Of a stretch of 64,000 nucleotides of DNA, positions 30,880-47,452 are shown one piece after another. The notes beneath the pieces were generated by a model that searched no databases, was not told the origin of the DNA, and saw nothing but the letters and a program-made list of their open reading frames with translations. Within the stretch, counting starts at the first letter, position 1. Every line of letters begins with the position of its first letter. Both the position numbers and the translations under genes were made by a program. Origin of the DNA: an uncultured bacterium (GTDB lineage: Bacteria > JAGRBM01 > JAHCIT01); contig CAZUMS010000007.1 of NCBI GenBank assembly GCA_964621525.1, positions 2,015-66,014 of the forward strand. Reading direction: 5' to 3'.

Positions 30880-32556
<1,677 letters not shown>

Positions 32557-32599
32557 TCAACCAGAACGGGGGCAAGAATTCACCGGAACGGAAAACCGG

Positions 32600-35500
32600 T
32601 CAGGGAGGTGGCAGGGTTGTGAACTCGAAGTCGCGGATTTCACCGTTATCCGCGCCAACCGAGTACTGGTGCACCGATCCGGCCGGGATCGACGGCGGAG
32701 TCGTCCGGCTCCAGACCGGGGTCTGGAGATTGATGAGCGTCAGGTTATTGCCCGAGCTGTCCCGCTCGCTGCTCGGCACTACCAGCCAGCCGGGACCGAC
32801 GATGGTAGCCCGGGGCGACGATGCCGGCGCATCAATGGTCGCCACTTTGACCGGGCTGCTGAAGGTAACGTCAGTTCCGCCCACGGGGGCCACCGTGTAC
32901 TGGGACGTATCCAGCACATAGATCCGCTTGAACGGAGTGACTGTCCGGTTCACCAGAACGAAGGCAGCGGAACCGTGCGTCCGTATTTCGATAACAGTAC
33001 CGCCGCCGCCCGTCTCCAGATTGAGCGGGAACGTCTTGGGCGTAAGCACGGAGGCATCCTTGGGCCGGCAGACCGATTCGGCACATCCGCCACCAGAGCG
33101 CCAGCGCCAGAACTGGGTCAGGTCGATGGTCGATACCTTCAGTGTGGCGCCAGTCGTACCGGCTGCGAACGCCCGGTCGCCTTCGATCCTGAGTGCTTCA
33201 ACGGAACGCGGATAGGCGTCATTGCCCGACCCGCGTTCGACTGTGCGGCTGTTGCCCGCCTGGAAGTTCACCTGGCAGTTGGCATTAAAATCCGCTGCGC
33301 TCAGATTGTCGAGATTCAGCCAGAACAGGCGCGCGGCATCCACGCTGCCGGCCGAGTAACCAACCAGCAGCAGATTGTCTCGGATCGCAAACGACTGCGG
33401 CAGTGCGCCTGTGATCGGATCAGTAACGATTTCAATCTGCTTTACGTTAACACAATGGCTGCCGTCGGCGATTGGAGTAACCAGGTTCACTTCTGCCCCG
33501 GTGTTCAAGTCATGCGCGACGATCCGGTACTGGGACAGCTGGATCTGGGCAATCGAATAGACCCGTTCTCTGCCCTCATCGACTATCACCGAATGGATAC
33601 CGTAACCATCGGCATCCGCCGACGTATCGGTGCTTAGGCCGTTCACGCCCGGGAGGTCCGCATTCTGGTCCAGCTCTGCATCCACCTGCGGATCAATCAC
33701 ATTGAGATCGTGACGGCCGGTGACGCCAGGATCCTCGCTCACGAACAGCACGCTCTCGCCAACGGAGGTCCCGTAGTAGAACGACTTCTCGATTCGGTCG
33801 AGGCGCTGGATGGCTCCTGTCGGCGAATACCCGGTGTTGATCCGGACACTCTGTTCGCCCGTCACGTTGTCGGTATCCACAGCCCTTGCGACGTAGAGGG
33901 GCGGCGCAATCTCAGTGAAATCACGCTGCTCGGCAACCGCAATGGCATTCGCGGCCGGCATCGTGACGAAAATCCGCTGCCGTGCGTCGGTCTCCGCCAG
34001 ATCATACGCGATGCGGGTCCAGACGCCACGGGCATCGCCCGCGAACAGGTTCGGGTAGGCTTCGGTCGCCTCGAATGGAATTTCGTTATAGGTGAGCGGC
34101 GGATACGGCGAAGCCTGGAGCCAGGGTTTATTGGCGTGTCCGGCATCCGGAGCCTGCCGTTCGTGACGGAACTGGAGGAGCTGGCTCGTGGTCGAATTGA
34201 ACAGGAAGCCCAGCTTGTCAGTGGCCGCAATAACCGTGGCGCCGCCATTCTGGTTGGCCGGCGGACCGCCGAGGTTAAAGACATTCTCCGCCTCGGCGAG
34301 AACATTCTGTCCCTGCATTTCGGCGCAGAGCGTCTCCTGGCTCACAGAAGGCGGGCCGCTGTCGGCGATACCGTCGTAGACCCGCAAGCAGCCGAGGTCG
34401 TCCGTCTGCAGCGTGTTGTTGTTTCCGGGGTCGAACAGATTCAGCATCGCCACCGTCGTCGGCGTCGTATCGGTACCGGCGTTCTTGAAGCCGTTGGAAA
34501 TCGAGATCATCAGCGTAAACCGGTCGTCGCGGTCGTTGATATCGGAGCCCGTTGTGTCCCGGTCGTCACGCACCGAGACCGCGTGAGCGAGGGCGCGGAC
34601 AATGCCTCCGCCCAGGGTTGCGGTGCGGGCCGACTGCGTACGGGTGAGCGTGATGCCGGCGGGGAGTCCCGAAGCGTTGAAACTGCCGTTCATGTCCACG
34701 ACGTTCATGCTGTCCATGATGCGGAACTGGGTAATCGTGCCCGGCGGAAGCCCGTCACATCCGTCTGCCCGGATCGTGAACCGGATGGGGTCGCTGGCAT
34801 GCAGGCCGACCACGGTATACCGGTATACGCGGGAACCGCCGCCCGAGGTCTTGAGCAGCAGGACGTCCTGCGGCTGAATACGGTCATCGGCGGTCGCCCG
34901 GATACCGTCGGTACCGTACAGCCCGCCCCCGGGGAGTCCTGCGACGGCCACATCGACGTCCACCGGAACCGTGACGATATCGTCTTCCTCGCGCTGGTCC
35001 GGGGTCGTATTTGGCGAACCTGTCACGCGGCCGTTCGGATCCAGCACACACTGGTGGTTGCTGTAGCCCTGACCTGACCCCGTACCCGTCAGGATACCGT
35101 CGAATGAAATCGTAAGGCCCAGCCCCGGCCGGCTGGAAGGCAGGGGAAGTCCCGAGCGGGACAGGTCGGGCCGGACATCAACCGGGTAGACGCTCTGCGG
35201 CCGGTCATTGAGGGCATCGGCACTGGGATCGTTCGTCGTCGCCCGCACCGTCAGAAAGCCGATATCCCGCCGCACCCGGCCTTCGAGCGAATAAGGTACC
35301 TGGGGCTTCTCGAACCGGAACGGTTGCCAGAACCGGAGAGGCCGGTTCGAGTAGCGGTAAACATTTTCGTATGCACCGCCCGGCTGGAACTCGGCATACG
35401 TCAGCGTGAACTGATCGGACAGGAAATCTCCCGGAAGGTTCGTCTGCCGGCCCAGGATCATCGTGATACCGGTGTTCCGGTTCGGGTCCGGGACTGGAAC

Positions 35501-38500
35501 ACTGACGGAATCCGCGCCTGGAGCTCCGGCACAGCTGCCGGACTGGGCGGCGATGTAATTATCCGGAATCGTGTCCCCATTGGTATCGAAACAGACGCTC
35601 GACTGGAGCGCCGAATAGGAGCTCGTATAGGGATCAAAATCCGTGTCGATTTCACAGAGCACCCATTCCCGGCTTCCGGGCACCTCGGGCTCCTGACAGA
35701 GCGCCGTCGTGTACCCGTAACAGGGACTCCCGCCGCAGGCCGTGTTCCCCTGGAACGGGAATCGGATCTCCTCATCGTCGGTCCACTCGTCACCGTCCGT
35801 TTCATCGGATTCAGGATCGGGAGTCAGGGAAAACACGGAGAGTCCGCCGTGGGTAGGACCGCCAGTATTGGGGTCCGATTCCACCACCGCGTAAAGATAG
35901 GCCTCGTCGTCCATGTCCCGGTCGCCATCACCGTCGCTGTCCTGATGGTCTACGACGAGCTGTGTGGCACCTGCAAAGGAGAGCGTCGCCGAATAATCCG
36001 TTTCCCGCAGGGCCAGCAGCGGAATCACGCCCGAGGGCTGAGGAGTGCCGGTTGTCGCGACACTCGTGTCCGGACGGTCGAAATGGAGCTGGTTGTCGAA
36101 GTCGAGGCTGAGGTTGAAGACGTACAGGACGTTGTAGATCGGGTCCGAAACGAACACCCGTCCCATCGTGACACCGTCGATACCGCCGTCCGGAGCGAAG
36201 ACCGCGGCATAACGCGGCGACACCGGAATCGTGACACCCGAAGACTGGCGGCCCTGGCACGGCGCGGTGAACACCGGCGGCGCGTTCGGATCAAGGGCGC
36301 TTTCACAGGACGGACCACGGTCGGGATAAGGTACACGGATCCGGGTGATGCCGGGCTCGGCCCGGAGACTGGTCGTAAATTGGTCGTTATCCCCATCGAT
36401 TTCCCGGTACCGGGATACGATCCGGAACTCGACCCCCGGCACCGATACCTGCACTGGATTCAAGGTACCGTTCAGTACCAGCCGGTTCGAAGCGCCGGGG
36501 ACACCCTCCACCGCCGTGATGACCCGCCGGGTTTCGAGCGGAGATCCGGGACGTACGATCAGCACGTCGCCGGCCGATACCGAGCAGTCGTTGCTCGCAT
36601 CCGCCGTGAAATCCCCGAGGTCGATGCCGCGATTGCAGTCGTAATTGCGCTCGACGAGGAAATCGGAGGAGAGCGACTCCACAACGTTGTTGGTCGTGCC
36701 GCCCACAAGGTTCAGGTCGTTGCCCTGCACAAGCACTTCCTCGGCGATCCGGATAACGGAGAGATCGCCGCTGCCCGAGTTCACGACGACGGCGCGGTCC
36801 ATGAGCGGCTGCCCGTCCTCTCCGAATGCTCCCGGATCGGAACTGAAGAAGGCGATTCCGAGCGGCTTCAGGCCGCTGGATCGGATGGTCTGAAGACCGA
36901 AAGTCTGGTCCGTATCCACGCTGGCGACTTCCGGCGTCGCAGTGCTGTAATCGATACCGATCCGGTCAAGCTGCGAAAGCGTCCGGTTCGAGACGTAGCC
37001 GACATCAAAACGGCTCGTGTAACTCACCAGTTTCGAAACGGAAGCTTCCCCGGTGCAACCAACGTCATCATAGACCGTCAGTGCGATCTGTCCGGTTTCC
37101 GGGGGCGGCGTGAGCGTCAGTTCGAAGCGGCCCTGATTCACGTCGCCGGTATTCGTGAGTCCGACGCCACCGGTAATCCCGTTCGAGATATTCACGCAAT
37201 TCGTAATGCCCGCCCCGTCGTCGGCCTTGACCGAATAGCGCGTGTTGCTGACGCCGCTTCCGAAGGGCGACGGGTCATCCGGAGATTTCACCACCGAGCC
37301 CAGGGCGCCCCGGACAATAAAGCTGCTGACAATGGTGCCGTCAGAACCGGCGGAAAGGTTGTTCTCGATCGGGTGGAAGATCTCGACCCGGGCGATATTC
37401 ACCGGCGGGGGCGGACGGTTCAGGAGACCCAGGGCGAACCGGAAATCAACGAAGGTCGAAGGCCGCGCCGTGATAGCCGCCCGCACGGTAAGGACTCCCG
37501 CCGAGGCGCTTCCGGTGAATAGTAAATCCTGTGATGCCGCACCCGACGCGGTCGTTATCGCCCGCTGGTTCGGAGGAACTTGCTGATCGACCGGACACAG
37601 GCTCGGATCTCCGCCCGAAAGGTCGACAGACGGGAGCGTCGCAAACCCGCTGGACTGCACCGCATAGGTGACGCAAACCGGTGCTTCGGCCGAATCCGGG
37701 GCCGGACGTCCCCACTGGTCGCGGACCATGACGCCCATGGCGTACGGGCCGAGATCGTTCGTGAGATCGGCCTCGCGGTCAGCCTGCGTGACTTCGCTCG
37801 TGTACTCGATCGTCGTTCCGGCAGGACGCTCGGCCCGGACCCGGAACGTCACACCCGTTTCCGGAACCACCGGGACGGCATTGGTGAATGTCCCAGGCAC
37901 CGGATTGGTCGTCGAAGTCGCGCGGACCACGTACTCGCCGCTGACGACGGAAGCACTGGCCGACCCGCCCGTAGTGATGTTCGCCCGGACCGCGGGACTG
38001 CCAGTGCACAGCAGCGTCGTGCCGGGGCTTCCGCACGAGGAACCCGAACCCTGCGACAGTTGGGGCAGCGTGAGGCCGCCGACCGCTTCCCCCGGCGAGT
38101 TCTGGTACTGAATGCTGATGGTCGATGATACCGGCACGCCATAACGGTCGATGATGTTCACGGTGAGCGGTGCAGCTTCCGGCGTCTCGGCCGCGAAGTT
38201 GCTCGCACAGGTCGTGTTGAACGGACAGATCTGCCCCGAACCGGAAACGATCTGAATGACGCCCTGGTCCGCATCGGCCACCGGCAGCACGAACTGGGTG
38301 GCGGTCGTCGGGATGAACTCGGCCCCGAAGACGTTCGTCACGATCGCCTCGACGACCACCTCGCCGGAAGCACAAGTATCCAGCGGTGTGACCCGCACCT
38401 GCGTACGCCCGGCTCCGTCAATCGGCAGCGTCAGATCAAAGTCGGTATCGTTCAGCAGCGCAGGACAGTTGCCCACGATATCCACCCGGAAAGTGACGTA

Positions 38501-39469
38501 AGGCGCCGTCAGGGGATCGGCGGTGTACGACGTCGCCGGTTGCTGCGCCACAAGGTCGTAGACGAAGGTTTCGAGCGGAACGCCGAGTTCGATGAGCGGG
38601 AATCCCGCCTGCCCGTTTCCGCCGAGCGCCGTGATATCCAGCGAACCGCGGGCGAACGTGTACGAGTTCTGAGCCGTCAGCTCCTCCGGAGTCGCCTGCA
38701 GCACCGTACCAGCGTCCGGCCCATCGTTATCGACGATAAGCACCTGGACGGCCGCAGTGACCTGGAACTCGCCGGGCGGCAGTTCCCCGTTTGCATTCGG
38801 AGTCAGGATCTGGATCTGGGTATCGCTAATCGAGATGAATCCCATGCCGTCGGGAGCGCAGTCGACCGAGGCCGGCGTCATCCCGAACGGAACGTCGCAT
38901 TCCAGCCGCACTGCCGGACCGGAAGGCTGCGGGAAGATAAAGGCAACACGCAGGATCTGGCCCGCCTCAACCTCGAAACCGCCGCCAGCGATCGTCACCG
39001 GGTCGGCTCCGAAGGTATCTCCGCTCGACGGATTGATTGCTCCCGCCGACAGCAGCGCAAGTCCCTCCCCGAGGTTGATCTCCCCAAGGATCGCCTTTTC
39101 GATAATCAGCACGTCGCCGAGGGTGATATCACCCGCGTCGTTTGCGGCATTGTCATCGCCGCCCAGGAATCTCGTGGCAAGATCCGGGTAACGCACTTCC
39201 CCCGGCAAACAGGTAATGCAGGGAGCAAGCGGGAACACGTTCGCGGAGTTCAGCTCCGCCACCGTCGGTTCCACTCCCCGTAACGCGAAGGAGCGGATTA
39301 GCAGCAGGTCGCCGAGGGTAATCAGCCCGTCGGGGTTGCCTCGTGGATAGATGTCGCCGAACCGGCCTGCGGCACGGGCGTCGCCTGCTACCAAGGTCAC
39401 GGCAAACAGCGCCGCCGCGAGCCACGCTCGCGGCCGGGACCGCCCTGGTGCCGTCAGAAAGCTTTTCAT
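32600..39469 (-). CDS. Giant (2289 aa) secreted protein of unknown function with duplicated dockerin-like N-terminal motif and YVTN-type beta-propeller-like strands
   Basis: Uninterrupted 6.87-kb ORF with coding-like codon usage; signal peptide MKSFLTAPGRSRPRAWLAAALFAVTLVAGDARAA; duplicated motif GLITLGDLLLIRSFAL / GDITLGDVLIIEKAIL; segments such as VGYVSNRTLSQLDRIGIDYS and AVVVNSGSGDLSVIRI; Gly/Thr/Asp/Pro-rich. Confidence 0.8.
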   Translation of the reverse strand: MKSFLTAPGRSRPRAWLAAALFAVTLVAGDARAAGRFGDIYPRGNPDGLITLGDLLLIRSFALRGVEPTVAELNSANVFPLAPCITCLPGEVRYPDLATRFLGGDDNAANDAGDITLGDVLIIEKAILGEINLGEGLALLSAGAINPSSGDTFGADPVTIAGGGFEVEAGQILRVAFIFPQPSGPAVRLECDVPFGMTPASVDCAPDGMGFISISDTQIQILTPNANGELPPGEFQVTAAVQVLIVDNDGPDAGTVLQATPEELTAQNSYTFARGSLDITALGGNGQAGFPLIELGVPLETFVYDLVAQQPATSYTADPLTAPYVTFRVDIVGNCPALLNDTDFDLTLPIDGAGRTQVRVTPLDTCASGEVVVEAIVTNVFGAEFIPTTATQFVLPVADADQGVIQIVSGSGQICPFNTTCASNFAAETPEAAPLTVNIIDRYGVPVSSTISIQYQNSPGEAVGGLTLPQLSQGSGSSCGSPGTTLLCTGSPAVRANITTGGSASASVVSGEYVVRATSTTNPVPGTFTNAVPVVPETGVTFRVRAERPAGTTIEYTSEVTQADREADLTNDLGPYAMGVMVRDQWGRPAPDSAEAPVCVTYAVQSSGFATLPSVDLSGGDPSLCPVDQQVPPNQRAITTASGAASQDLLFTGSASAGVLTVRAAITARPSTFVDFRFALGLLNRPPPPVNIARVEIFHPIENNLSAGSDGTIVSSFIVRGALGSVVKSPDDPSPFGSGVSNTRYSVKADDGAGITNCVNISNGITGGVGLTNTGDVNQGRFELTLTPPPETGQIALTVYDDVGCTGEASVSKLVSYTSRFDVGYVSNRTLSQLDRIGIDYSTATPEVASVDTDQTFGLQTIRSSGLKPLGIAFFSSDPGAFGEDGQPLMDRAVVVNSGSGDLSVIRIAEEVLVQGNDLNLVGGTTNNVVESLSSDFLVERNYDCNRGIDLGDFTADASNDCSVSAGDVLIVRPGSPLETRRVITAVEGVPGASNRLVLNGTLNPVQVSVPGVEFRIVSRYREIDGDNDQFTTSLRAEPGITRIRVPYPDRGPSCESALDPNAPPVFTAPCQGRQSSGVTIPVSPRYAAVFAPDGGIDGVTMGRVFVSDPIYNVLYVFNLSLDFDNQLHFDRPDTSVATTGTPQPSGVIPLLALRETDYSATLSFAGATQLVVDHQDSDGDGDRDMDDEAYLYAVVESDPNTGGPTHGGLSVFSLTPDPESDETDGDEWTDDEEIRFPFQGNTACGGSPCYGYTTALCQEPEVPGSREWVLCEIDTDFDPYTSSYSALQSSVCFDTNGDTIPDNYIAAQSGSCAGAPGADSVSVPVPDPNRNTGITMILGRQTNLPGDFLSDQFTLTYAEFQPGGAYENVYRYSNRPLRFWQPFRFEKPQVPYSLEGRVRRDIGFLTVRATTNDPSADALNDRPQSVYPVDVRPDLSRSGLPLPSSRPGLGLTISFDGILTGTGSGQGYSNHQCVLDPNGRVTGSPNTTPDQREEDDIVTVPVDVDVAVAGLPGGGLYGTDGIRATADDRIQPQDVLLLKTSGGGSRVYRYTVVGLHASDPIRFTIRADGCDGLPPGTITQFRIMDSMNVVDMNGSFNASGLPAGITLTRTQSARTATLGGGIVRALAHAVSVRDDRDTTGSDINDRDDRFTLMISISNGFKNAGTDTTPTTVAMLNLFDPGNNNTLQTDDLGCLRVYDGIADSGPPSVSQETLCAEMQGQNVLAEAENVFNLGGPPANQNGGATVIAATDKLGFLFNSTTSQLLQFRHERQAPDAGHANKPWLQASPYPPLTYNEIPFEATEAYPNLFAGDARGVWTRIAYDLAETDARQRIFVTMPAANAIAVAEQRDFTEIAPPLYVARAVDTDNVTGEQSVRINTGYSPTGAIQRLDRIEKSFYYGTSVGESVLFVSEDPGVTGRHDLNVIDPQVDAELDQNADLPGVNGLSTDTSADADGYGIHSVIVDEGRERVYSIAQIQLSQYRIVAHDLNTGAEVNLVTPIADGSHCVNVKQIEIVTDPITGALPQSFAIRDNLLLVGYSAGSVDAARLFWLNLDNLSAADFNANCQVNFQAGNSRTVERGSGNDAYPRSVEALRIEGDRAFAAGTTGATLKVSTIDLTQFWRWRSGGGCAESVCRPKDASVLTPKTFPLNLETGGGGTVIEIRTHGSAAFVLVNRTVTPFKRIYVLDTSQYTVAPVGGTDVTFSSPVKVATIDAPASSPRATIVGPGWLVVPSSERDSSGNNLTLINLQTPVWSRTTPPSIPAGSVHQYSVGADNGEIRDFEFTTLPPP

Positions 39470-39493
39470 CGCTCTGATCTCCTAACGGCCTTC

Positions 39494-42400
39494 TCAGGGT
39501 TGTCCGTAGTTCTTGTTGGAATGAACCGCCGTCGGCGGGTCGAACTTCAGCGGGGCATCTTGGATATCGGCTGCGGTAACGTATCGCTGGATTGACGAGT
39601 TCGCCGCCCCAGGAACAACCTGTGTAATTTCTCCGATACCAGGATCATAAGGGAGCCGGGTCGCCAGCGTATCACAGGGCCCTTCCGAGCAACGCTCCTT
39701 AATCGTAAAGCGCGTGCGGATCACTTCACGTGAACCCGGGCTTCCCGCCGGGAATATATAGGCATTGGAACCCGTCGACTGAAGGATTCGCACTCGATCA
39801 CTACCGGACTGCACAATCAAGTTATCCAAGAGTACGCCGAGTGGAGCCAGAAAGTCCTGGCCCGTGGGCGAAGCCGGATCGGTGGCGCTGTAAATTAGAT
39901 GGCCGTCGTTGAATTCAAAGACCAGCGTGAAACCGGCGAAATCCACCTGGCTCGAACCGGAAGTCCGGGTCATGGGGAACTGGTAGTTCACCTCGCGGCG
40001 CACGCTCTTCACGTTCACCGAGCCGCTCGTCTGACAAAGCGGCTGCTTGGCCACCGGGCAACCGTTCAGGGATGCAGTGACTGTGGTCGTCGCCGAGGAC
40101 GACGGCGCCAGCGCAGGATTACCGTCCGAGACGACGCAGGCCCGTCCCTGGAAGGTTGAGCCCACAAGGTCGGTGGCAACCGGCCCGCTCACCAGCGTGG
40201 TCTGGCAGGCGAACAGGGGATTGGCGCTCGGATTACCGCCGTTGTGACGATAGAGACTGCCGGTCGCACCCGAAAGGCTGAAATCGATGGGTGAGGTGGA
40301 ACCGGTATTGATATTGCCGCCGTTCAGCTTCTGGACCTTCACCACCGCCACCCGCGAGAAGAAACCGAGGTTACGGTAATCGGTATTCGCGCCGGCCGAA
40401 GTAATGCCGTATTCGGTGGCGAATGCCGCATTCGTTGCCGCGTGACGGGTGTAGATCGGGTCCGATGTCGGCACGCCGGAATTCAGGACTTCCGGATTCA
40501 CAAACTCGATTGTCACCCGGCCGGGCAGTTCGCCGTCCGGGGCAAGGTTAAATGTCACTTCGGACTGGACCAGCGTCACAGGATCGAGCTGCGGGCTTCC
40601 GGAGGTGGTCTCCTGCAGGCGCACGATCATCGCACCGGTCTGCGAAGCCGCACGGCTCGAGCTCCGGGCACGGACGTAAACAGCGGCAATACCGTCGACG
40701 ATGGGTTCGGTCACGTTGGCAATCGAGAAGTTGGTCGTTGCCAGACTGGGCGGACTACCCGTCGAATTGAAGATCGGGTTCATTCCCGACGTGACCACCG
40801 ACCCCTTGCCGAACTGAAGTTCGACGCCGTTGGATTCGCCGGAATCGCCATCGGCATCCGTTTCAACACCGTCCGCCGAACCGGCCGGATCGTCCACCGT
40901 TCCCGAAGAACGTCCCTTATCGATGAACCGGAGTGTGTAACCGGCATCGTTCGGCACCTGATAGGTAATCTCCGGATTCCCGCCGCCCGGGCACATGATC
41001 TGCCCGTCGACTGCCTGGCCGAAGTAAAGCTGACCGAAGGTCCGGACGCTGCACTCGTAATACATGCAGTCGCCGCCGTTCGGGAACGAACCCGATGCCC
41101 GGTTGTTGTTCGCCTCGATGGTCCGGCTGCTGCTGTTCTGGAGGCAGGCGGCAGGACTCGCAAAGGCCGGGACCTTGCGAGTGCAGGTCACTGCCACCGG
41201 CGACAAACAGCTGGGATTTACAACGACCGACTGGCTGTCCGACGGCAGGCCCACTGTCGAGGCGGACACCGGCGTTACCGACATGTTGATCCGGTAGGGA
41301 TTCGCCGGCGACGTGGCAACGAGCGGCGGCATCAGGAAGGCAAAACCGGTTTCGTTGTCGTCGAGATCGAGCGGCATCCAGCCTGCGGCGACCTCGTTCG
41401 TAATCGATAGATTGTCCTGACCGGCCGTCTGGACCGATGAGTTGTGATAAGCGCCCGAACCCCGGACTACATAGGGAGGCTGCGTCTGTTGCCCGGTATA
41501 CGTCATGCTGACGGCAACCTGTGTATCCTGGAACGTCGCATCTTCCTTGAGCTGGAAACAGTCGTCGTACGCGCCGAGATCGTTGACCGACCGGCAGGTG
41601 GACGGAAGGAGCTGAAGACGGAGCGGGATACGTGGAATATTGGTAATCCCTTCGCCGATCCGGTTGGAACAGATGTCTGCGGGAGTGCCGCGGAAAATGC
41701 CGAAGTCTCCACAGCGGGTATTCACCTCCGTCGAACAGGCCGACGAGTTGAATGCTCCACCCTCTGCAAAGCACTGGGGGGCATAGAGAATCGGCTTTTC
41801 CGGACACTGGGCGATCTTGAGCCCGGCGGTGTTCACGCCCGGCGTCACCGTACAACCACCAAGCGGCGTACTCGCGGCGGTCGGGTCCACCCACTTCACA
41901 ATGAAGGGGAGTGCCGGGTCCGGTCGCAGACGCAGACGGTTTTCCTCGCCGGCAACGCTCTTGCCGATGAAGTTCCGGGTTCCCCAGCCGCCCGCGTCCA
42001 CCGGCGCGAGAGCGGCCTGGCTGCCATAACGGCGGGTGGCCGGCGGCGTCGCCACCACGGGGCCGGCGGTGCTGAACTTGAGCTGCGGGAAGATCTTGGT
42101 AAAGCCCGCGCCGGAACGTACCTTGACCGAATTCCGCGTGACGCGGAGGAATACCGAGTTCACGCACGAATCGGCTGTACCAGAATCGCCGCAGGAAACC
42201 AGAATGCTGGGCGTCTTGGCGCCGTTGGCCGTCGAGCTGAAACCGCAATCGCTGGCGTTCAGAACGATCGAACTGTCGTTCGGATCAAGCGCGTTTTCGC
42301 AACTCACCTGGATCTGTGTGCCTTCCCGGAGGCAAACGACATTGCCGACACCGGGTGCATAAGCGTTGCAAGGCGCGTTCTGGGCATCTTCGTCGGCCGA

Positions 42401-43492
42401 GATGATGCGGATGTCGATGCGGAACTCGTCGGCCCGGCTCTGGCTGAGACCCACCCAGCCGTCAAGACCGCCGCCCGCGGGCGTTTCCGTCGGCAGGTTC
42501 GACAGTTCGGGGATATTCACCGGATTCGGCAGGAGGGCGTTCAGACGGGAAACAACACCCCAGTCCACACGGACCGGCGCGCCGACGTCCTCGAACACCG
42601 TCACCTCTTCATCGTCGAAAATCGCTCCGTTCCCCGAGAGTGCCGCCCGGACGGTAAGGGTTCCCCCGTCGGGATAGAGAGTCGTCGTGGTAAATGTGAC
42701 GCTTGCCGTGCCGTCAGCATCCAGCGTGACCGGAGTGGACGGAGTGAAGATGCCGAGCGGATCGGTCGAGGTGAAAATCAGCTGATAGGCTGCCGCCGGA
42801 GTCCCGGTAATCACATCGCCGTCCTGATTACGGAGCTGCGCCTTCACGGTTGTAGATCCGCCCGTCACGGTCAGCAGAAAGTCGTTGGCTTCGAAAATCT
42901 CGACCTCAGTGGGAATCGTCGGGTCGGGCTCGAAGACCACGTTGTTGATGTTCTGGATCAGCGTGGTGAGGTTCGGATTCCCCGAATCGATGTGCGATAC
43001 AGATACGCTGTAGTTACCGCTTTCAGTGGCGCGCACATAGAACGTCAGCGCCGCGCCGTCCGGAACTGCCGAGACCGTCACGGACTGGTAATGAACCGAG
43101 TCTGCCGCCGAATCGAGATGAATCCGGGCGCCCTCGGGCGCCGTCACGACCAGCCCGACCGGGGCCAGCGTCCCGGCCGCCTCGCCGGTGGCAGTGATCG
43201 ATGCCTGGATACGGTACTGCTCGACACCGTTGGCGATGCAGACCGTCGCGCCCGTCCCGGTGCAGCCAATTGCCGTCCGGGTTACGGACATGGAATATTC
43301 GACGTCGGTGGGAACCTCGACCGTGCGTGTTCCGCCACCACCACCGCCGCCGCCGCTACTGCCGCCGCCGCCACAACCCGCGCCGACGAGAACAACCGTC
43401 ATGAGCAGAACCCCCCAGCGCCAGCCGGAGAAAAACCGCTCTACAGAATTCCATTCAGTCATTGTTTTCCGAAAATACATCGCACTCTCCAC
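39494..43492 (-). CDS. Large (1332 aa) predicted surface lipoprotein of unknown function, Gly-linker then Cys-rich and Thr/Ser-rich regions
   Basis: Lipobox LVGAGC followed by GGGGSSGGGGGGGG linker; 4-kb uninterrupted ORF; ends 24 nt before the 2289-aa gene (same strand), suggesting an operon. Confidence 0.8.
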   Translation of the reverse strand: MESAMYFRKTMTEWNSVERFFSGWRWGVLLMTVVLVGAGCGGGGSSGGGGGGGGTRTVEVPTDVEYSMSVTRTAIGCTGTGATVCIANGVEQYRIQASITATGEAAGTLAPVGLVVTAPEGARIHLDSAADSVHYQSVTVSAVPDGAALTFYVRATESGNYSVSVSHIDSGNPNLTTLIQNINNVVFEPDPTIPTEVEIFEANDFLLTVTGGSTTVKAQLRNQDGDVITGTPAAAYQLIFTSTDPLGIFTPSTPVTLDADGTASVTFTTTTLYPDGGTLTVRAALSGNGAIFDDEEVTVFEDVGAPVRVDWGVVSRLNALLPNPVNIPELSNLPTETPAGGGLDGWVGLSQSRADEFRIDIRIISADEDAQNAPCNAYAPGVGNVVCLREGTQIQVSCENALDPNDSSIVLNASDCGFSSTANGAKTPSILVSCGDSGTADSCVNSVFLRVTRNSVKVRSGAGFTKIFPQLKFSTAGPVVATPPATRRYGSQAALAPVDAGGWGTRNFIGKSVAGEENRLRLRPDPALPFIVKWVDPTAASTPLGGCTVTPGVNTAGLKIAQCPEKPILYAPQCFAEGGAFNSSACSTEVNTRCGDFGIFRGTPADICSNRIGEGITNIPRIPLRLQLLPSTCRSVNDLGAYDDCFQLKEDATFQDTQVAVSMTYTGQQTQPPYVVRGSGAYHNSSVQTAGQDNLSITNEVAAGWMPLDLDDNETGFAFLMPPLVATSPANPYRINMSVTPVSASTVGLPSDSQSVVVNPSCLSPVAVTCTRKVPAFASPAACLQNSSSRTIEANNNRASGSFPNGGDCMYYECSVRTFGQLYFGQAVDGQIMCPGGGNPEITYQVPNDAGYTLRFIDKGRSSGTVDDPAGSADGVETDADGDSGESNGVELQFGKGSVVTSGMNPIFNSTGSPPSLATTNFSIANVTEPIVDGIAAVYVRARSSSRAASQTGAMIVRLQETTSGSPQLDPVTLVQSEVTFNLAPDGELPGRVTIEFVNPEVLNSGVPTSDPIYTRHAATNAAFATEYGITSAGANTDYRNLGFFSRVAVVKVQKLNGGNINTGSTSPIDFSLSGATGSLYRHNGGNPSANPLFACQTTLVSGPVATDLVGSTFQGRACVVSDGNPALAPSSSATTTVTASLNGCPVAKQPLCQTSGSVNVKSVRREVNYQFPMTRTSGSSQVDFAGFTLVFEFNDGHLIYSATDPASPTGQDFLAPLGVLLDNLIVQSGSDRVRILQSTGSNAYIFPAGSPGSREVIRTRFTIKERCSEGPCDTLATRLPYDPGIGEITQVVPGAANSSIQRYVTAADIQDAPLKFDPPTAVHSNKNYGQP

Positions 43493-43891: not shown

Positions 43892-46800
43892 GTGTCAGAA
43901 GAATCCAAAAGCGATCCTGGCAGTGGCCAGCTTCTACAGCTTCTGGCCGAACGGGAAGAACTGCTCGCCCGGCTGGCGCGTGAGACAGCCCGCGAACGGG
44001 CCGAATCGCTTGAGTTCGTCAACCGGTTCCGCGACACGATCGCCGAAAAGGACCGGGCTCTGGAAAAACTGGCTGCCGGGGCCTCGGCCTCGGACGCGCA
44101 ACTCCGGTCGGCGCAGGAAAGCATCAGGGAACTGACCGGCAGGCTCGATACTGCTGAAACCCGCCTCCTGGAAGAACAGCAGAAATCGGATGGCATCCGG
44201 GCATCCTTCGATTCCGAACTGAAGAACCGGGACTCGGAGATTCTGCGGCTCAGCCGTGAACTCGCCGGCGAAGCCGCCGCGAGGCAGCAGATCGAGAAGG
44301 AGTTCTCTGCTGCCCGCGACGACTGGCGCTCCAGTGAACAGCGCCTGCATCAGGAAACCGTCAATGCCCAGAGCGAACTGCGGCTTTTGCGAGAGCGCAG
44401 CGCCGCACTCACGGCTGAACGGGACGGCTTCGCCGCCCGGCTCGAAGCCGGTCAGGAACGGACCGGAGCTCTCGGCCGTGAACTCGATGAACTCCGGGAG
44501 AAGGCCCGCAGCCTCGAAAACTCGCTTGCCGGTTCCCATGCCGCCGCCGAAACGGAACGCACCCGGCTGAACGGGCAGATCGACACGCTGCACCGTGAGC
44601 GGGAGACACTCGGACAAAATGTCCAGCGGCTGGAACGCGAGACGGCACGGCTCGAGGCTCTGCTCCGTGAGGCTCACGAACGCCTTGCCGAACGCGAGCG
44701 GGGGCTCGCACAGCTTGCCCGCTCGGCAGCAGCCGAGCGTATGGAAGCGACAAGGCGGCTCGACGCCGCAGCCGCTTCGGCCCTCGAATCCGCACAGCGG
44801 ATCACCTCGCTAGAGAGCCGCCTCGAAGCGGCAGTCCAGGAGGCGAGAGTCCAGATGGCGCGGGCCGAGCGGACGGCCCTCGACCTCAAATCCGAACAGG
44901 AGGCCCGTGCCTCCGATGCAGCCCGGTTCCACGAAGAACTGAGAACGCTGGACCGCCAGATCGCCGATCTCCGCGAACACCGGGCCCGTGAACAGGAACG
45001 GCTCGTTTCGGCCGAAGCGCTCGCCGCACAGTTTCGCGAGGAGGCCGGGCGCGCCCGGAGCGAAGCCTCCCTCGAGGCCGCCCGTCAGCAGGAAACCTTG
45101 CTCGCCGAACAGGGCGAACATGCCCGCCGGATGGCCGCACTCGATTCACGTCTCGTGTCGCTGGAGGCGGAGCGCATGTCAGTCGCCTCGCGTGCAGCCG
45201 CCGCCGAAACGGAGGCCGAAGGGCTCCGCCGGCAGCTCGCCGGACTTCAGGACGTGTTCCAGCAGATCCGGAGCGACAGCGCAGCCGCGTCCGGCCAGAA
45301 CCAGCAGACGATCCAGCAGGCAATCCAGAACTGGGAAAGCGTCTCCGCCGCAGCGGGCGCCCAGAGCGGCAAGCTGGCTCAAACCGTTTCCGAGCTGGAA
45401 AGCCGCCTTTCGGAAATCGCACGCCGGCACGACGAACGGCGGGATGAGATCCTCAAGCTTGAGAACCTGCTCGCCGAACGGGAAAAAATCCTGGCCGATA
45501 TTGTCGGCGGGCAGAGCGAGGAGGTCCGCCGCTACGAAAGCCAGCTTGAGGAGGCCCGTTCGCGAATTCGCAGCCTCGAAGCGGCCGTCACAGCATCTGG
45601 CGGCAGTCTGCCGGCAGCGCTGGCGGCATCAGACAGCGCGGGCTCGATCCAGGATGAGCTCGCCCGCCTCCGGGCGGAAACGCACGGTCTCTCCAAATCG
45701 CTCGATGCCGCCGTCCGCAAGGCAATCGCCGAAAGCGGGCGTTCGCCGGAACTCGCCGGGCAACTGGCACGGATCGAAACGAAACTCTCGGCTTTGAACG
45801 CCGAGGACCGGGACCGGCGGTTCGCCGAACTTCTTCAGGCCGCACAGGCCGACGCCAGGCAGGTTCAGGAGCAGGTGCGAACGGAGCTGCGCAACCTGCT
45901 CCAGAAGATTTCCGGAAGCCCTCAGGGCCCGAAGGACCCGCTCCGCCTCGATCCGGCGGATCTGAAACGTATCCAGACGGATATCGATCAGCGCCTGACC
46001 CGCAGCGAACGGCAGGTAAACGATCTTGCCGCAGCTTTCGAGAACTTCATCCGGCAGCCGCAGACGACGCCGAATTCCGGCGCGCTGGCAAAAACCATCG
46101 AGGCGGTCCGGACGGAAACCCGTGCTTCGACGGAACTCCTCCGGCGCGAAATCGCGGCCATCGCCGCCCAGACGCCGGGGACGGCAGCGGCCAAAACCGC
46201 CGATCTCAAGCTCGCCACCCAGCTCGCCGCCCTCGAAAAGCGGTTACCGCTGCCGGGCACGCGGATGGCCGGAACGGACCGGGCGATAGCCGCCACCATC
46301 GCCGCCGCCGGGTTCCTGCTGATCGTCTTCGGTCTTGCGGGCGTCGCCTGGCGGCAGTGGAGGCTCGAAAACCGTCTTCTTACCTCTTATCAACCAGAAC
46401 TCTTCTCGGGCAGGTCCGCCGCTTCGGCGCTGGAAGCGCCGGAACTCGATACTCCCCTGCCCTACGAAACGGATGGAGATCAGGCAGAAATTTCGGGGCG
46501 GGCCTCACAGGCCCAGGGAGTCGTCATGCACATCGATGGCGTGTTTTTCGCAGCCGTCCCTGTGCGGGGAGGAAAATTCCTCGTGGACCGGATCCCGCTC
46601 GAACCCGGCAGCCACCGGGTCGAACTCTGGGCGTTTACGCCCGGGCAGGGGTTCTCGCCGCCCGTATCCGGAGATTTCGTCCGCAGGCAGTCGGCCGAAG
46701 CCGCACGGATTACCGAGCCGCCCCGGACAGTCCTGACCGGCCTGAACGTGGAACGCGGCCCCACCGACCGCCGCGAGATCGGCCTTACGTTCGATGGCGA

Positions 46801-47452
46801 CGGCGCGGCCGGTGCCGAAGTCGTCATGGACACCCTTAGGCAGAAGCGAATCCAGACGACAGTGTTCCTCACCGGTAAATTTATCGACGAGAACCCAGCG
46901 CTCGTACGCCGCATCGTCCAGGACGGCCATGAGGTCGGCAACCACACGGACACGCACCCGCACCTCACCACCTTCAATGAGAACAACCGCCACGACACCC
47001 GGCCTGAAGTGAACAAGGCGTGGTTTCAGGACGAACTGGTGCGGACATCGGCGAAATTCGAAGAGGTGACGGGGAAACCCATGTCGCACATCTGGCGGGC
47101 GCCCTACGGCGAGGTGAACGCCGAAATCCTCCGCTGGGCGCACGAACTGGGCTACCGGCACGTTGGCTGGACGCGGGACTATACGCGGAGCCTCACGCTC
47201 GACTCGCTGGACTGGGTCATCAACCACAGGGACAAGAACTACCAGCCCGGCGGAAAGATCGTGGACCGGCTTCTCAGCTTCGAGCGGAACTCCCGTGACG
47301 GCGTCAACGGGGGGATCGTGCTGATGCACCTCGGCACCCAGCGCCAGCTGGACGACTCCGTTGCCCTGCACCTGCCCCGGCTCATCGATGAATGGCGGGA
47401 CCGCGGCTACCGGTTCGTGAAAGTCTCGACGTGGCTTCCCGAAGAATCCTGA
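43892..47452 (+). CDS. 1186-aa fusion protein: N-terminal ~780-aa coiled coil, one TM helix, beta-sandwich-like linker domain, C-terminal NodB-type polysaccharide deacetylase (CE4)
   Basis: GTG start; Ala/Glu/Arg/Leu-rich heptad-like sequence for ~780 aa; TM AIAATIAAAGFLLIVFGLAGVAW (46283-46360); NodB motifs TFDGDG, HTDTH (H-S/T-x-x-H), RAPY (RxPY), LMH. Confidence 0.8.
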   Translation: MSEESKSDPGSGQLLQLLAEREELLARLARETARERAESLEFVNRFRDTIAEKDRALEKLAAGASASDAQLRSAQESIRELTGRLDTAETRLLEEQQKSDGIRASFDSELKNRDSEILRLSRELAGEAAARQQIEKEFSAARDDWRSSEQRLHQETVNAQSELRLLRERSAALTAERDGFAARLEAGQERTGALGRELDELREKARSLENSLAGSHAAAETERTRLNGQIDTLHRERETLGQNVQRLERETARLEALLREAHERLAERERGLAQLARSAAAERMEATRRLDAAAASALESAQRITSLESRLEAAVQEARVQMARAERTALDLKSEQEARASDAARFHEELRTLDRQIADLREHRAREQERLVSAEALAAQFREEAGRARSEASLEAARQQETLLAEQGEHARRMAALDSRLVSLEAERMSVASRAAAAETEAEGLRRQLAGLQDVFQQIRSDSAAASGQNQQTIQQAIQNWESVSAAAGAQSGKLAQTVSELESRLSEIARRHDERRDEILKLENLLAEREKILADIVGGQSEEVRRYESQLEEARSRIRSLEAAVTASGGSLPAALAASDSAGSIQDELARLRAETHGLSKSLDAAVRKAIAESGRSPELAGQLARIETKLSALNAEDRDRRFAELLQAAQADARQVQEQVRTELRNLLQKISGSPQGPKDPLRLDPADLKRIQTDIDQRLTRSERQVNDLAAAFENFIRQPQTTPNSGALAKTIEAVRTETRASTELLRREIAAIAAQTPGTAAAKTADLKLATQLAALEKRLPLPGTRMAGTDRAIAATIAAAGFLLIVFGLAGVAWRQWRLENRLLTSYQPELFSGRSAASALEAPELDTPLPYETDGDQAEISGRASQAQGVVMHIDGVFFAAVPVRGGKFLVDRIPLEPGSHRVELWAFTPGQGFSPPVSGDFVRRQSAEAARITEPPRTVLTGLNVERGPTDRREIGLTFDGDGAAGAEVVMDTLRQKRIQTTVFLTGKFIDENPALVRRIVQDGHEVGNHTDTHPHLTTFNENNRHDTRPEVNKAWFQDELVRTSAKFEEVTGKPMSHIWRAPYGEVNAEILRWAHELGYRHVGWTRDYTRSLTLDSLDWVINHRDKNYQPGGKIVDRLLSFERNSRDGVNGGIVLMHLGTQRQLDDSVALHLPRLIDEWRDRGYRFVKVSTWLPEES

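Follow-up and report, generated by a model that had tools for sequence, protein, structure and literature searches.

An interrupted type-I dockerin-like module opens a giant secreted protein that is co-inherited with a giant lipoprotein in uncultured bacteria

Cellulosomes are organised by the docking of dockerins onto cohesins, an interaction that is also widely used in protein engineering. Dockerins are usually C-terminal in their proteins. To our knowledge, dockerin-cohesin biology is almost unexplored outside Firmicutes and archaea, and we know of many non-cellulosomal dockerins without a known partner. Among the described systems, the closest in kind to the module reported here are the type I dockerins of clostridial cellulosomes (Xyn10B/XynY, 1OHZ/2CCL; the double dockerin of Clo1313_0689, 8X39; PF00404). 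A second group is formed by cohesin/dockerin proteins of ANME archaea and diderm syntrophic sulfate-reducing bacteria, which are putative adhesins (PMC10553843) and were found by standard domain annotation, with cohesins nearby. Giant Ig-repeat envelope proteins (intimin/invasin Big_1, integrin-like, complement/alpha-2-macroglobulin MG), which are strings of beta-sandwiches, and surface proteins with YVTN, LVIVD or Kelch propellers also offer points of comparison.

In this work, we analyzed a pair of genes, A and B, in a 64,000-nucleotide stretch of DNA from an uncultured bacterium (the window), whose host we take to be diderm since an OmpA-family gene lies within it. The pair joins a dockerin, which two loop insertions mask from standard annotation and which is N-terminal on a 2,289-residue orphan protein, to a co-inherited orphan lipoprotein of 1,328 residues. 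The genes are arranged as follows:

39494..43480, minus strand: gene A, a beta-rich lipoprotein of 1328 aa with 29 Cys (1332 aa from the GTG at 43492)
39470..39493, minus strand: A-B intergenic spacer of 24 nt, with the Shine-Dalgarno sequence AGGAG 9 nt before the ATG of B
32600..39469, minus strand: gene B, a Sec-secreted modular protein of 2289 aa, defined by its ORF and its homologues

An earlier interpretation made from the letters only (the sequence-only reading) had described two large ORFs on the same strand, 24 nt apart and covering 17% of the window, and had noted a lipobox with a 14-residue Gly linker and a Cys-rich module in A, a cleavable signal peptide in B and core housekeeping genes beside the pair. 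All of these were recovered, at the same coordinates (10,893 nt for both genes, 17.0% of the window). Only the start of A is revised: the ORF listing gives 39494..43492(-) with a GTG start, and both the gene callers and a GGAG 9 nt upstream favor the ATG at 43480, while B keeps its listed ATG. With a short spacer and a Shine-Dalgarno site for B separate from that of A, the two genes are an operon-like pair.

With 62% GC, this DNA also contains long antisense ORFs, the largest of 783 aa, and A and B might be artefacts of the same kind, that is, chance ORFs in GC-rich DNA, or else cargo of a toxin or mobile element. We find this hardly credible. The GC3 values of the two ORFs (0.73 and 0.75) are gene-like, close to the 0.80 of pyrG and above the 0.60-0.64 of the long shadow ORFs on the opposite strand; when the window is compared with the related locus L004, 46-47% of the codons for identical residues differ synonymously, so that synonymous sites are saturated with the protein conserved (52-60% identity); and full-length collinear homologues persist at 29% identity. 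Given this gene-like GC3 and the synonymous divergence at conserved residues, A and B are real genes under purifying selection. As for cargo, neither a composition anomaly nor any RHS/YD or toxin-domain match in Pfam and NCBIfam was found.

Both families are very rare, with about seven loci in all the collections searched, all of them from uncultured organisms; the A family counts four close members and one full-length distant member. A stands immediately upstream of B in seven of seven distinct loci (the window, also represented by L001-3, and L004, L006, L007, L009, L010 and L011), with spacers of 8-42 nt in the relatives, and in those collections each family was found only together with the other. 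The L011 pair is only 24% (A) and 29% (B) identical to that of the window and has different flanking genes, and B is still collinear over its full length. Synteny in relatives was a check that the sequence-only reading had named, and it holds in every relative found. Its proposal that both proteins are exported also stands, the lipobox being kept in five of five readable N-termini of the A family and the signal peptide in six of six B-family sequences, at both evolutionary depths. Moreover, the lack of a well-characterised family for either protein persisted in sequence searches of Pfam, NCBIfam and PDB, which gave no above-threshold match. Around 30 conserved Cys in each of A and B fit an oxidising extracytoplasmic compartment.

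The main finding concerns the N-terminal region of B, which contains:

39368..39469, minus strand: signal peptide, residues 1-34, cleavage after ARA (from the sequence and homologues)
39044..39367, minus strand: interrupted type-I dockerin-like module, residues about 35-142 (dockerin with its two insertions at 35-135), the first module of mature B
39143..39235, minus strand: 31-residue insertion, residues 79-109, in Ca-binding loop 2 of the dockerin, with CxxC in close members and low pLDDT

The signal peptide shows a basic n-region, a hydrophobic core and a cleavage site between ARA and A. In the dockerin, a further insertion of four residues (41-44) interrupts loop 1 at the place equivalent to the insertion in loop 2. 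Native B scored 15.6 bits against Dockerin_1 (PF00404; GA 22.9, E 0.019), and the hhalign match was weak (P 0.038). When residues 41-44 and 79-109 were excised in silico, the four close members scored 26.2-34.2 bits against the same GA, matching profile positions 2-57 of 57 with E values as low as 3e-8. In a control of 2000 random excisions of the same sizes, not one equalled the designed score, and the top-scoring ones had removed nearly the same positions; the two distant B-family members gave no Pfam Dockerin_1 match even after excision. Removal of the insert restores D-x-N-x-D-G-x-I-x-x-x-D in loop 1 (D39, N45, D47, G48, I50, D54), with D39, D47, G48 and D54 invariant in all six family sequences, and loop 2 is non-canonical (N77, N110, A112, G113, D119), its position 5 not being acidic. 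Conservation is 0.55-0.59 in this region, against a mean of 0.47 for B. A dockerin is defined by two tandem segments of ~22 residues, in which a 12-residue Ca-binding loop precedes a helix, and by the resulting three-helix fold; all of this is present in the model, which was built from a 6-sequence alignment and is of moderate confidence (pLDDT 61). In fold and in sequence signature, B opens with a type-I dockerin-like module interrupted by 4-aa and 31-aa loop insertions. In contrast to the clostridial dockerins, it lies at the mature N-terminus, is split at equivalent loop positions, has a non-canonical loop 2 and belongs to a diderm MAG, on a protein without a catalytic module and with no cohesin partner recognised.

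Behind the dockerin, B is laid out in further modules:

38744..39040, minus strand: IPT/TIG-like domain, residues ~144-242 (TIG profile of Pfam, E 0.0048 for the window protein)
37436..38320, minus strand: tandem Ig-like repeats, residues 384-678 (self-hhalign of 384-544 vs 533-678, P 0.024)
36395..36589, minus strand: small repeated module, copy 1, residues 961-1025 (self-hhalign vs 1528-1592, P 0.06)
34694..34888, minus strand: small repeated module, copy 2, residues 1528-1592 (self-hhalign vs 961-1025)
32720..33724, minus strand: weak C-terminal repeats of ~65 residues, residues 1916-2250, putatively propeller-like (self-hhalign P 0.025-0.1)

The IPT/TIG match (PF01833) of the window protein reached 17.3 bits (GA 20.9); TIG matched three of the six family members at E up to 1 (best E 1.6e-4), and Big_1 one member at E 0.0015. 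These TIG and Big_1 matches speak for a stalk of Ig type. The YVTN propeller strands that had been read in B did not hold up: no Pfam or NCBIfam propeller family (YVTN, LVIVD, Kelch) was matched at E up to 10, a Kelch match at E 0.5 being not significant, and what B shares with propeller surface proteins is blade-like beta-strand motifs in its C-terminal 400 residues and the weak self-similarity of the C-terminal repeats at shifts of ~65 and ~130 residues. We therefore call this propeller putative.

The dockerin is a hallmark of cellulosomal enzymes, most of B (~700-2289) has no assigned fold and a CE4 esterase gene adjoins the pair. These features could be read as a cellulosome-like complex that degrades or captures a substrate, B carrying a domain, catalytic or carbohydrate-binding, that has diverged beyond recognition. 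This seems improbable to us, as A and B, even when scanned as 600-residue pieces at E up to 10, gave no CAZyme, CBM or catalytic family match, and each locus holds a single dockerin protein and no multi-cohesin scaffoldin. Because no catalytic domain is recognisable, an A-B complex would most likely be structural or adhesive.

Protein A, in turn, has no Pfam or NCBIfam domain above threshold. The features that can be placed on it are:

43373..43480, minus strand: signal peptide ending in the lipobox V-G-A-G-C, with the lipidated Cys36 (ATG numbering), conserved in homologues
43331..43372, minus strand: 14-residue Gly/Ser tether behind the lipidated Cys, from the sequence
42629..42856, minus strand: Big_1/MG2-like beta-sandwich region, sub-threshold (Pfam Big_1 E 0.061, MG2 E 0.07)
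41699..41809, minus strand: Cys-rich stretch, residues 562-598 (QCPEKPIL...CGDFG)

Judged by eye against the PROSITE rule of the PS51257 type, [LIVMFWSTAG](2)-[LIVMFYSTAGCQ]-[AGS]-C, A is a bacterial lipoprotein, whose signal peptide runs up to the lipobox VLVGAG-C, followed by the 14 residues GGGGSSGGGGGGGG. Lipobox and GGGG are invariant in P0005-P0008, the distant L011 homologue has LAGC-GGGGGGG, and homologues show the variants A-A-A-G-C, V-L-A-G-C, A-V-T-G-C and I-L-A-G-C, each followed by GGGG. The four Cys of the Cys-rich stretch are invariant in four close homologues (A1/A4), and the first alone is kept in L011. With a mean pLDDT of 39.7, the AF2 model of A cannot be used; the Big_1/MG2-like region is its only part with pLDDT 50-68, and its Foldseek matches fall in the Ig-repeat class at TM ~0.1. 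An identity as a YfhM-type alpha-2-macroglobulin lipoprotein was considered and rejected, since there was no A2M-family match, no CxEQ by eye and only MG2 at E 0.07; the Foldseek likeness to alpha-2-macroglobulin has a TM of ~0.1 and comes from this unreliable model. A and B resemble the giant Ig-repeat envelope proteins through weak Big_1, MG2 and TIG signals, but all of these are sub-threshold and reflect a general texture rather than family membership, and no autotransporter or T1SS feature was recognised.

The sequence-only reading had also proposed a partner docked on a lipid-anchored base. The docking part gained unexpected and specific support from the interrupted type-I dockerin-like module at the start of B, but no cohesin or known dockerin receptor came to light in A. 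The roles that the reading had suggested (S-layer-like, adhesin or substrate capture) are conjectural. Cohesin searches in A were of limited sensitivity: neither A nor any other ORF of the window and the loci gave a cohesin (PF00963) match with Pfam, NCBIfam or a local cohesin HMM, the A profile run against the whole set of PDB chains found none at E up to 10, and hhalign of A against three clostridial cohesins aligned 17 columns (P 0.051), too near the C-terminus for a whole cohesin. It is conceivable, though rather unlikely in our view, that the dockerin binds another target (a cohesin protein elsewhere, a glycan, or calcium for stability) and that A and B are co-expressed without being anchor and cargo; besides the missing cohesin signal, the atypical dockerin loops agree with this, and other partners may exist, the loci being available as contigs and not as whole genomes. 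Against it stand the adjacency of A and B in all seven loci across 24-29% identity, despite differing downstream housekeeping flanks (pyrG/rpoN or mutL/miaA), the fact that A is the sole other conserved extracytoplasmic product of the operon, and the presence of this type of dockerin in one protein per locus, with no second carrier in any fetched locus. The sequence suggests that B is plugged onto an envelope anchor. That A receives the dockerin is our inference, as are the need for calcium, the compartment in which the complex ends up, its structural or adhesive function and its connection with a deacetylase encoded next door.

Like the proteins of ANME archaea and sulfate reducers (PMC10553843), B carries its dockerin on a large, Ig-rich extracytoplasmic protein of an uncultured diderm, with no link to cellulose and a presumed adhesive or matrix-related role. 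Unlike in them, its dockerin escapes annotation and no cohesin is detectable in the lipoprotein that is its putative partner; no sequence relationship to those proteins was seen.

A third gene is conserved beside the pair:

43892..47452, plus strand: divergent neighbour encoding a coiled coil of ~800 aa, one TM helix and a periplasmic CE4/NodB deacetylase

It lies divergently beside A-B in L001, L004, L006, L007 and L009, and a coiled-coil gene occupies its position in L011. Tentatively, and as our preferred reading, A and B form a dedicated two-gene operon for a dockerin-mounted, envelope-tethered assembly of two proteins, structural or adhesive in nature (Cys36 and the Gly tether on one side, the dockerin on the other). 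A would be exported, lipid-modified at Cys36 and held on its flexible Gly tether as a disulfide-rich, mostly beta scaffold of ~1,300 residues. B would leave via Sec, and cleavage of its signal peptide would bring the calcium-binding type-I-like dockerin foremost, ready to plug B onto an envelope receptor, the likeliest being the co-inherited A. From this attachment point, B would project the IPT/TIG domain, several Ig-like domains, a proline hinge and a pair of large regions of beta repeats (propeller-like) that carry acidic, Cys-rich inserts. The complex might bind matrix, other cells or polysaccharide, and it probably cooperates with the divergent membrane-anchored coiled-coil CE4 deacetylase, which could modify the contacted glycan (peptidoglycan or exopolysaccharide). 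It is tempting to speculate further, although we deem this quite unlikely, that A is a new non-cohesin receptor and that A, B and the coiled-coil/TM/CE4 protein make up a new envelope megacomplex of a rare uncultured lineage, with native diderm dockerin anchoring and a cytoplasmic coiled coil that sites glycan deacetylation at the mount.

The neighbour also bears on where the assembly resides. A could face the periplasm, and B could be a periplasmic scaffold on the cell wall, working with the membrane-anchored CE4 deacetylase. B has only a Sec signal, and no outer-membrane translocation, sorting or secretion signal was recognised on it; the nearest NCBIfam models of the TM-anchored CE4 are the peptidoglycan deacetylases PdaA, PdaB and PgdA; and a dcw cluster is presumed near the locus, since L004 carries mraZ-rsmH in the corresponding stretch. 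However, all the CE4 matches fall far below the equivalog cut-offs, the dcw/rpoN surroundings are not kept in the distant relative, B would be a very large protein to find in the periplasm, and dockerins and IPT/Ig stalks are typically found on extracellular proteins. On balance we hold a periplasmic assembly to be unlikely, and we regard surface exposure of B as putative.

Should A be the receptor, the pair would provide a new dockerin-receptor pair, possibly with a non-cohesin receptor, a case of lipoprotein-based docking in a double-membraned cell, and a handle on ~3,600 residues without known fold. Should it not be, A and B would be another lineage-specific pair of giant envelope proteins, which still warns that interrupted dockerins evade profile searches.

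The housekeeping genes of the window are pyrG, rpoN, hpf, ptsN, hprK and rapZ. Their adjacency is incidental, as the distant L011 pair adjoins mutL and miaA. Between B and pyrG lies one further element:

32533..32560, minus strand: sigma-70-like promoter, TTGACA-16-TATACT

The position of this putative promoter suggests that pyrG does not depend on read-through from the A-B unit.

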